A DNA stretch of 42,260 bases from an uncultured Planctomycetia bacterium (GTDB lineage: Bacteria; Omnitrophota; Gorgyraeia; 1-14-0-20-64-10): the NCBI GenBank assembly GCA_964372955.1, contig CAYJTC010000002.1, forward strand, positions 1 through 42,260, written 5' to 3'. Position 1 is the stretch's first letter. Each line of letters begins with the position of its first letter. Under the pieces are notes generated by a model. It had not been told where the DNA came from and ran no database searches. It was given only the letters and a program-made list of their open reading frames with translations. A program made the translations under genes and the position numbers. Shown here in pieces: positions 41,995 to 42,260 of this stretch.

Positions 41995-42260
41995 GGGGAA
42001 AGAGGGGAAATATGGGAAATAGGGGAATCAGGGGAAACCGGGGAAAGAGGGGAAACAGGGGAATCAGGGGAAACAGGGGAATCAGGGGAAACAGGGGAAT
42101 CAGGGGAAACAGGGGAAAGAGGGGAAACAGGGGAATCAGGGGAAACCGGGGAAATCTGTCTTCCCTGTCTTCCCTGTCTTCCCTGTTTTCCCTGTTTTCC
42201 CTGTTTTCCCTGTCTTCCCTGTTTTCCCTGTTTTCCCTGTCTTCCCTGTTCACCCTGTTT
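41995..42260. repeat. Large inverted array of 9-bp tandem repeats: 18 G-rich units, then at least 11.5 complementary units, running off the window
   Basis: 41995..42156 is 18 x GGGGAAWNA (GGGGAAACA, GGGGAATCA, GGGGAAAGA, ...). 42157..42260 is TGTCTTCCC / TGTTTTCCC units, the reverse complement type. Same unit family as 9448..9535. Confidence 0.95.
42012..42260 (+). CDS. Possible 5' end of a gene whose N-terminus is encoded by the 9-mer arrays (open to the window edge)
   Basis: ATG 42012 with GAGGGG 4-5 nt upstream. It reads [83 protein letters not shown] with no stop in 83 codons. Same architecture as the OmpA-like signal peptide (MRVNRGGRGIRGN-LFSLFPLFS). Not in the ORF track because it has no stop. 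Confidence 0.4.

Follow-up and report, generated by a model that had tools for sequence, protein, structure and literature searches.

A palindromic two-arm repeat array from an Omnitrophota-like bacterium that may be translated as an export signal

Introduction

The STRR heptamer arrays of cyanobacteria are short-unit, multi-copy elements concentrated between genes. Tandem repeats also occur within genes. In the opa genes of Neisseria, the pyrimidine-rich tandem repeat (CTCTT)n lies in the region coding for the leader peptide, encodes its hydrophobic core and undergoes slipped-strand mispairing (PMC3745409). PARCEL elements are coding repeats in tandem whose DNA shows dyad symmetry, and they often lie in ORFs of membrane-targeted proteins or lipoproteins (PMC2996958).

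We analyzed a stretch of 42,260 nucleotides (the window) from an Omnitrophota-like bacterium. It ends in an array of inverted 9-bp repeats, here called the terminal array, and an array of the same family lies in an OmpA-family lipoprotein gene. By our comparison, the coding CTCTT repeat of opa is the closest known system. As there, a pyrimidine-rich tandem repeat forms part of the sequence coding for the signal peptide of a surface or exported protein. The 5-bp unit of opa, however, toggles the frame on and off, whereas the 9-bp unit of the terminal array is frame-neutral, and there are two inverted arms here, with a purine arm that would encode the n-region and a long predicted hairpin. Arrays of 7-bp units at two other genes of the window, OEP and SBP, would be closer to opa: phase variation of that kind requires a unit length that is not a multiple of 3, which holds for the 7-bp unit and not for the 9-bp unit.

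REP palindromes are likewise short-unit, multi-copy, hairpin-forming or tandem elements found mostly between genes, and the many metagenomic arrays described below are of this kind. REP and STRR elements are extragenic by definition, whereas the family described here is translated in at least one copy: the array at 9443-9550 falls within the OmpA-lipoprotein ORF and reaches over the upstream gene's stop codon. Its arms are tandem arrays, unlike the single palindrome of REP, and the window holds no RAYT gene. PARCEL differs in that its units encode a 25-residue amphipathic domain, which recurs along the mature protein; it is not a two-arm signal-peptide array. In the literature searched, we found no description of a two-arm palindrome encoding both signal-peptide regions.

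Results

Anatomy of the terminal array

The terminal array lies directly 3' of a phosphatase (HAD) gene, in the following order.

41301..41330, + strand: sigma-70-like promoter TTGACA-18-GATAAT (11 of 12), upstream of the HAD gene
41337..41990, + strand: HAD-IB (MtnX-like) phosphatase gene, stop TGA 41988-41990
41995..42156, + strand: purine-rich arm (arm 1), 18 units of 9 bp, GGGGAAWNA, 85% purine
42012..42014, + strand: ATG, the sole start codon for any frame open through the array, created by the T-substituted unit TGGGAAATA
42157..42260, + strand: pyrimidine-rich arm (arm 2), 11.6 units of 9 bp, TGTCTTCCC / TGTTTTCCC, 88% pyrimidine

The array totals 266 bases and runs into the window end within arm 2. 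Tandem Repeats Finder gave a period of 9 for both arms, with 17.8 copies and 86% matches at 41995-42154, where a 36-bp super-period reached 91%, and 11.7 copies and 91% matches at 42156-42260. A whole-window pattern scan returned 19 matches to GGGGAAN3GGGGAAN3GGGGAA against 0.05 expected, and 26 to the complementary pattern against 0.04 expected. A preliminary description of this DNA had reported a two-arm 9-bp array here. It is real, with 18 units in the G-rich arm and 11.6 in the C-rich arm, both patterns far above chance, and it reaches the window edge. Arm 1 contains one variant unit, TGGGAAATA, among its 18 GGGGAAWNA units, and every unit of this arm carries a Shine-Dalgarno-like GAGGGG or AGGGG.

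The arms had been described as reverse complements. They are complementary, but at 74-80% and not exactly, as arm-2 units read GGGAARACA on the opposite strand versus GGGGAAWNA in arm 1. Read unit by unit, the order of variants in arm 2 does not mirror that in arm 1, indicating that the two arms expanded independently. Separate expansion rules out a simple fold-back artefact, and a fold-back assembly chimera was rejected because the arms are systematically different. CRISPR was likewise rejected because there are no spacers, as were MITE or transposon ends because the arms are tandem arrays.

We consider it very unlikely that the array is an assembly artefact of any kind, whether a fold-back chimera or repeats collapsed or expanded at a contig end. 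The array does stand at the window end, and the window starts mid-gene, so it may be a whole contig. Similar arrays often terminate metagenomic contigs (e.g. L063, L065, L095, L120, L139-L141), and 9-bp units over >260 bp cannot be counted by short reads. However, the systematic difference between the arms (GGGG versus GGGA) and the unmirrored variant orders are incompatible with fold-back duplication, the family's second copy is internal and completely assembled, in a gene whose frame is intact, and the same architecture occurs in independent assemblies.

A sister array in an OmpA-family lipoprotein gene

The 42-kb window holds two copies of the repeat family, the terminal array and a sister array at 9443-9550.

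9443..9550, - strand: smaller, more diverged array of the terminal array's family; purine arm ~9550-9499, then pyrimidine arm ~9497-9443
8744..9535, - strand: OmpA-family lipoprotein gene; OmpA domain match, lipobox LTGC

That the terminal array shares its family with the signal-peptide array of this OmpA-like lipoprotein (8744-9535, minus strand) had been noticed before, and our comparison agrees. The sister array encodes MRVNRGGRGIRGN-LFSLFPLFSLFPLFSLLLTG-C34, in which the n-region MRVNRGGRGIRGN has a net charge of +4 and the h-region LFSLFPLFSLFPLFSLLLTG spans about 20 residues. The start codon, ATG 9535, overlaps the stop of an upstream metallo-beta-lactamase-fold (MBL-fold) gene as ATGA. 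In an alignment, the lipobox cysteine, Cys34, coincides with the [SP]GC lipobox that about 120 homologues carry, with xxWKS after it. These homologues have Omnitrophica or Omnitrophota as source names, the best is 71% identical, and all have an ordinary lipoprotein signal peptide. No ATG, GTG or TTG occurs between the sister array and the lipobox, so the start of the lipoprotein must fall in the purine arm. Because the lipobox is aligned with those of the homologues and the start is confined in this way, the sister array is, by sequence comparison, demonstrably translated, with the purine arm as the n-region and the pyrimidine arm as the h-region. It has what a classical Sec/SPase II signal has: a basic n-region, an h-region of normal length and a lipobox at the homologues' position.

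The codon phase, AGG GGA AAC / CTG TTT TCC, is common to the sister and terminal arrays, and the arm junction RGN|LSS of the terminal array matches RGN|LFS of the sister. The terminal copy also has the same n-then-h polarity as the classical signal. Unit identity is 86-91% in the terminal array versus 77-80% in the OmpA-gene copy (Tandem Repeats Finder), and this greater homogeneity would fit a recent expansion.

Many OmpA-lipoprotein orthologues (P0007, P0010, P0013, P0028, P0031, P0032, P0047 and others) have N-termini that resemble translated palindromic elements, such as SLRAPKGRSNL...CFVAALLAMT, LRQAQGER, FDKLRANG, RGQTPWGLTP and QKAVGSK...CLLLTAFCLLS. The sequences suggest that the 5' end of this gene is a phylum-wide hot spot for palindromic elements.

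Reading frame and predicted peptide of the terminal array

ATG 42012 lies in unit 3 of 18, 22 nt past the HAD stop and in the frame of the HAD gene, with GAGGGG upstream. From it, 83 codons are open and read (RGN/RGI/RGK)x16, then (LSS/LFS)x12. All three frames are open across the array, though only this one has a start codon downstream of its last stop. One frame is acidic, another lacks any start codon, and the ATG 42012 frame is basic, then Leu/Phe/Ser. The unit sequence alone opens all three, so openness is no evidence of coding. The 83-codon run that had been pointed out is therefore there, but the weight placed on its openness has to be dropped.

Openness from composition alone also fits a rival reading, in which the HAD transcript ends in a non-coding palindromic repeat of the intergenic REP/STRR type and the ORF is incidental. 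Such a repeat would stabilise or terminate the mRNA as a hairpin, or else be an expandable sequence that is selfish or neutral. Against this, the same family is demonstrably coding at 9443-9550, and the ATG, frame, junction and orientation of the terminal array are all as in that coding copy. Arm 2 also has no proline codons in its (LSS/LFS)n: TCC (Ser) stands wherever the perfect complement would give CCC (Pro). This systematic lack of proline argues for an export signal and against a non-coding hairpin.

The dimensions of the predicted peptide point the other way. Its n-region follows a start codon with the ribosome-binding-site-like GAGGGG and is basic, but it has 48 residues and a net charge of +17. 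Its h-region, of LSS/LFS triplets, has at least 35 residues with a mean Kyte-Doolittle hydropathy of 1.5 and is still running at the window end, whereas the usual h-region has about 7-22 residues. Both regions are far beyond normal signal-peptide dimensions. Compared with a classical Sec/SPase II signal, they are 3 to 10 times longer, and there is no cleavage site within the window, which ends inside arm 2, so that cleavage site, lipobox and mature domain lie beyond view. If translated, the peptide is on these dimensions more likely to be a signal-anchor or a poorly functional recent expansion. A Tat signal was rejected because no twin-arginine motif is present.

Because ATG 42012 is in the HAD frame, a ribosome that read past the HAD TGA would join the array peptide to the phosphatase. 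The shared frame is probably a coincidence, with a chance of 1 in 3. An (RGN)n(LSS)n N-terminus was absent from a search of 5.8 billion proteins, but the window's own OmpA protein is missing from that collection as well, so this absence was not counted as evidence. A phmmer search with the 83-aa ORF retrieved only collagen-like G-X-Y repeat proteins, an uninformative low-complexity artefact.

Predicted RNA fold and quadruplex motif

A long-hairpin potential had been proposed for the terminal array, and computed folding upholds it. The + strand RNA has a predicted stem of ~100 base pairs at -157 kcal/mol (z = -8.6). The - strand RNA reaches -123 kcal/mol; it folds less well because 13 positions pair as G-U on the + strand. 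The OmpA array is predicted to fold at -78 kcal/mol in sense and -60 in antisense. At both arrays the sense RNA thus folds better, which argues for an export signal. The high predicted stability as such also suits a non-coding hairpin. No intrinsic-terminator-like site was present in a terminator scan that counts at most 20 stem pairs, the hairpin's 3' end being outside the window, and this speaks to that extent against a non-coding hairpin. The whole window had no Rfam match at the gathering threshold and no match in a tRNA scan. With a stem of ~100 bp around the start codon, initiation should be impeded, except where ribosomes bind during transcription or come from the HAD gene.

Arm 1 has 17 tracts of four or more G with 5-nt spacing, and its sequence agrees with the G-quadruplex consensus (at least four G3+ tracts, loops of 1-7 nt). 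The match noted earlier is therefore correct as sequence potential. We think it highly improbable that the array serves mainly as a regulatory G-quadruplex/i-motif in DNA or RNA, with hairpin and coding potential secondary. The G4+ tracts with their 5-nt loops do lie on the non-template strand, and G-only GGGGAAWNA arrays are found in many phyla. However, the adjacent complementary arm would out-compete a quadruplex as duplex or hairpin, arm 2 has C3 tracts only, and the 7-bp arrays that occupy the same role at OEP, SBP and the contig L173 (below) are not of the G4 type.

Other arrays over signal-peptide regions

Two further inverted arrays in the window have 7-bp units.

3832-5172/5193, - strand: outer-membrane efflux protein (OEP) gene; GTG 5172 overlaps the upstream Metal_resist stop (GTGA)
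5060..5183, - strand: inverted 7-bp arrays, GGTGAAG-type then TTCACCC x4, in the signal-peptide region of the OEP gene
38990-41269, - strand: solute-binding-protein/permease fusion (SBP) gene
41156..41262, - strand: inverted 7-bp arrays, GGGTGAA-type then TGCACCC x4, in the signal-peptide region of the SBP gene

Besides the terminal array, all three purine-then-pyrimidine arrays in the window (OEP, OmpA, SBP) thus cover, on the coding strand, the signal-peptide region of an exported protein. The signal peptides of five further exported proteins encoded in the window are ordinary ones. Analogues occur on other contigs. On L173, another Omnitrophota contig, the OmpA-lipoprotein orthologue starts MREVRGQRKENRGEKIEGRGQK-TSVLYLLLSVLYLLALAGC, encoded by inverted 7/21-bp arrays with 82% complementary arms, a 5-nt loop and a GTGA overlap. 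On L150, an unrelated protein, an OpuAC lipoprotein, starts MRRGSRGRRKRRG-IFILLPLLPLLPLLISC, for which a GGGGAAG/CTTCCCC palindromic array codes. Across about 90 kb of Omnitrophota loci, signal-peptide coding regions hold three of eight short tandem repeats.

Another 7-bp tandem array was seen at 10214-10243, in or adjoining the signal-peptide coding region of the MBL-fold gene. As 7 is not a multiple of three, a change in copy number would shift the frame, and the arrays at the OEP, SBP and MBL-fold genes are possible on/off switches of the opa kind. The window also has two REP-like perfect hairpins, AGGGGTCAG(A/G)C...CTGACCCCT, at 38952-39009 and 10292-10353. One sits between two permease genes; the other belongs to the part by which the MBL-fold ORF is extended N-terminally, and there it reads KGVRPL...RGLTPL in translation. 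At 7103-7203, in or adjoining the NIL-domain ORF 6852-7220, there is a direct repeat with a 42-bp unit (x2.4, 98% identical).

The HAD locus in related genomes

The sigma-70-like motif upstream of the HAD gene is also visible in the relatives L171 and L172. Given this strong promoter, transcription should pass through the terminal array on the + strand, which counts in favor of an export signal. Look-ups by exact protein sequence, for HAD from two starts and for OmpA, gave no match. The HAD protein has an identical copy in NCBI (P0123); otherwise its nearest relatives are at most 73% identical. The SBP(-)/HAD(+) gene pair is kept in relatives.

In four of seven related genomes (L165, L166, L167/L168, L169/L170), a gene for a secreted protein overlaps the HAD stop. 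The protein, of the QEVYVTG...SFGGY type, has 203-224 aa and a classical signal peptide, e.g. MKWRLLAMTGILFSVPAFA|STQQEVYITG. At least one more gene whose N-terminus resembles a signal peptide comes after it, and three where the contig reaches far enough. In the window, GTG 41987 overlaps the HAD stop (GTGA), as the start of the next gene does in those relatives. This ancestral frame is closed by TAG 42020, which counts against an export signal, and any such downstream gene would now need ATG 42012.

In the other three relatives (L164, L171, L172; 71-73% HAD identity), a convergent gene lies 3' of the HAD gene, and in L172 the 3'-3' spacer holds another palindromic element. Both observations favor a non-coding hairpin. 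With the abnormal dimensions of the peptide, the convergent gene in three of seven relatives makes the non-coding hairpin a serious alternative and the main rival, one that we regard as possible but less likely than an export signal.

Genes for Y1_Tnp (IS200/RAYT-like), absent from the window, adjoin the syntenic SBP/HAD locus in three relatives, at the following positions.

L165, 11362-11940: Y1_Tnp gene
L166, 1-183: Y1_Tnp gene
L169, 1-294: Y1_Tnp gene

They may be relevant to the many palindromic elements of the phylum.

Similar arrays elsewhere

A scan of a genome collection for GGGGAAWNA x3.5 returned 43 loci, which are spread over many phyla. Most of them are single G-arrays or G-E-X repeats within coding sequence, and none of the 43 is from the source lineage. 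Cultured and uncultured bacteria of several phyla carry such arrays, including Luteolibacter algae (L023, 14 x GGGGAATCA), Luteimonas (L011), Lysobacter (L029) and L004, L008 and L022. A complementary arm lies nearby at a few of these loci.

Inverted G-unit/C-unit 9-bp arrays of other families were found at 123 metagenomic loci, mostly intergenic and many at contig ends, with a median open run past the C arm of 42 codons. We treat these two-arm arrays as a prior for the class and not as the same element as the terminal array. They indicate a class that is mostly non-coding and assembly-breaking, which supports a non-coding hairpin and weighs against an export signal.

A very abundant family in the metagenomes Ga0073934 and Ga0209172 has the form (GGGGAAGAG)n-GATTA-(CTCCCCACA)n and reaches about 280 bp (L046, L060-L065, L073-L075, L078, L138-L141, L157). 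It is mostly intergenic, frequently at a contig terminus, and sometimes lies shortly 5' of large HIISHGSPG-type proteins. Dispersed REP-like hairpins of the form CCAC-GGGGAGCGC-GGGGAACAC-GGGGAA...loop...TCCCCGTGTTCCCCGCGCTCCCC-GTGG (L047, L048, L052, L069, L070, L079, L134, L143 and others) have 9-bp-periodic units, are non-coding and usually lie 5' of genes.

Discussion

The reading that we favor, with a probability of about one half, is that the terminal array is an expanded, translated, repeat-built export signal. The preliminary description had proposed such a signal. The repeat family, the frame, the arm junction, the in-frame ATG and the position, which in several relatives codes for the signal peptide of a translationally coupled next cistron, speak for the proposal, while the peptide dimensions and the convergent gene in three of seven relatives do not. 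As the smaller array encodes a lipoprotein export signal, the terminal array is probably an over-expanded version of it.

We propose that a lineage-specific family of palindromic purine/pyrimidine 9-bp arrays occupies cistron junctions in this Omnitrophota-like bacterium and may be translated as the export signal of the downstream protein. The purine arm would supply Shine-Dalgarno-like motifs, a start codon and the Arg/Gly/Lys/Asn codons of a basic n-region, and the pyrimidine arm the Leu/Phe/Ser codons of a hydrophobic h-region. With the arms paired in the mRNA, initiation would probably depend on co-transcriptional loading or on ribosomes from the upstream cistron. Slippage would alter the length of the array and, owing to the 9-bp units, not its frame. 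The terminal copy, homogeneous and presumably recently expanded, would be translated from ATG 42012 within the HAD operon and would probably provide the next gene with an over-long signal or a membrane anchor.

A broader and more speculative idea, which we consider unlikely, is that palindromic purine/pyrimidine microsatellite pairs are self-expanding, portable export cassettes by which exported proteins would, again and again, gain a new signal peptide or have theirs replaced, in Omnitrophota and now and then in other groups. One element would then provide the ribosome-binding site, start codon, n-region, h-region and coupling hairpin, and signal-peptide length and expression would be rapidly evolvable.

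In practical terms, arrays of this kind fragment assemblies and lead gene prediction astray where a gene for an exported protein begins. If the repeats are translated, they would offer a simple route for the de novo origin and remodelling of signal peptides, since a hairpin-forming purine/pyrimidine repeat automatically reads basic, then hydrophobic. The frame-neutral arrays and their 7-bp frame-shifting companions would be counterparts to the classical contingency repeats.

Omnitrophota have been reported to possess giant extracellular proteins (bioRxiv 10.1101/2023.11.21.568195). The window has two adjacent giant ORFs on the minus strand, 10403-18784 (2793 aa) and 18812-30274 (3820 aa), each with an ordinary signal peptide. 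The setting of the arrays is an uncultivated phylum whose members are thought to be predators or symbionts, in which surface proteins are important.
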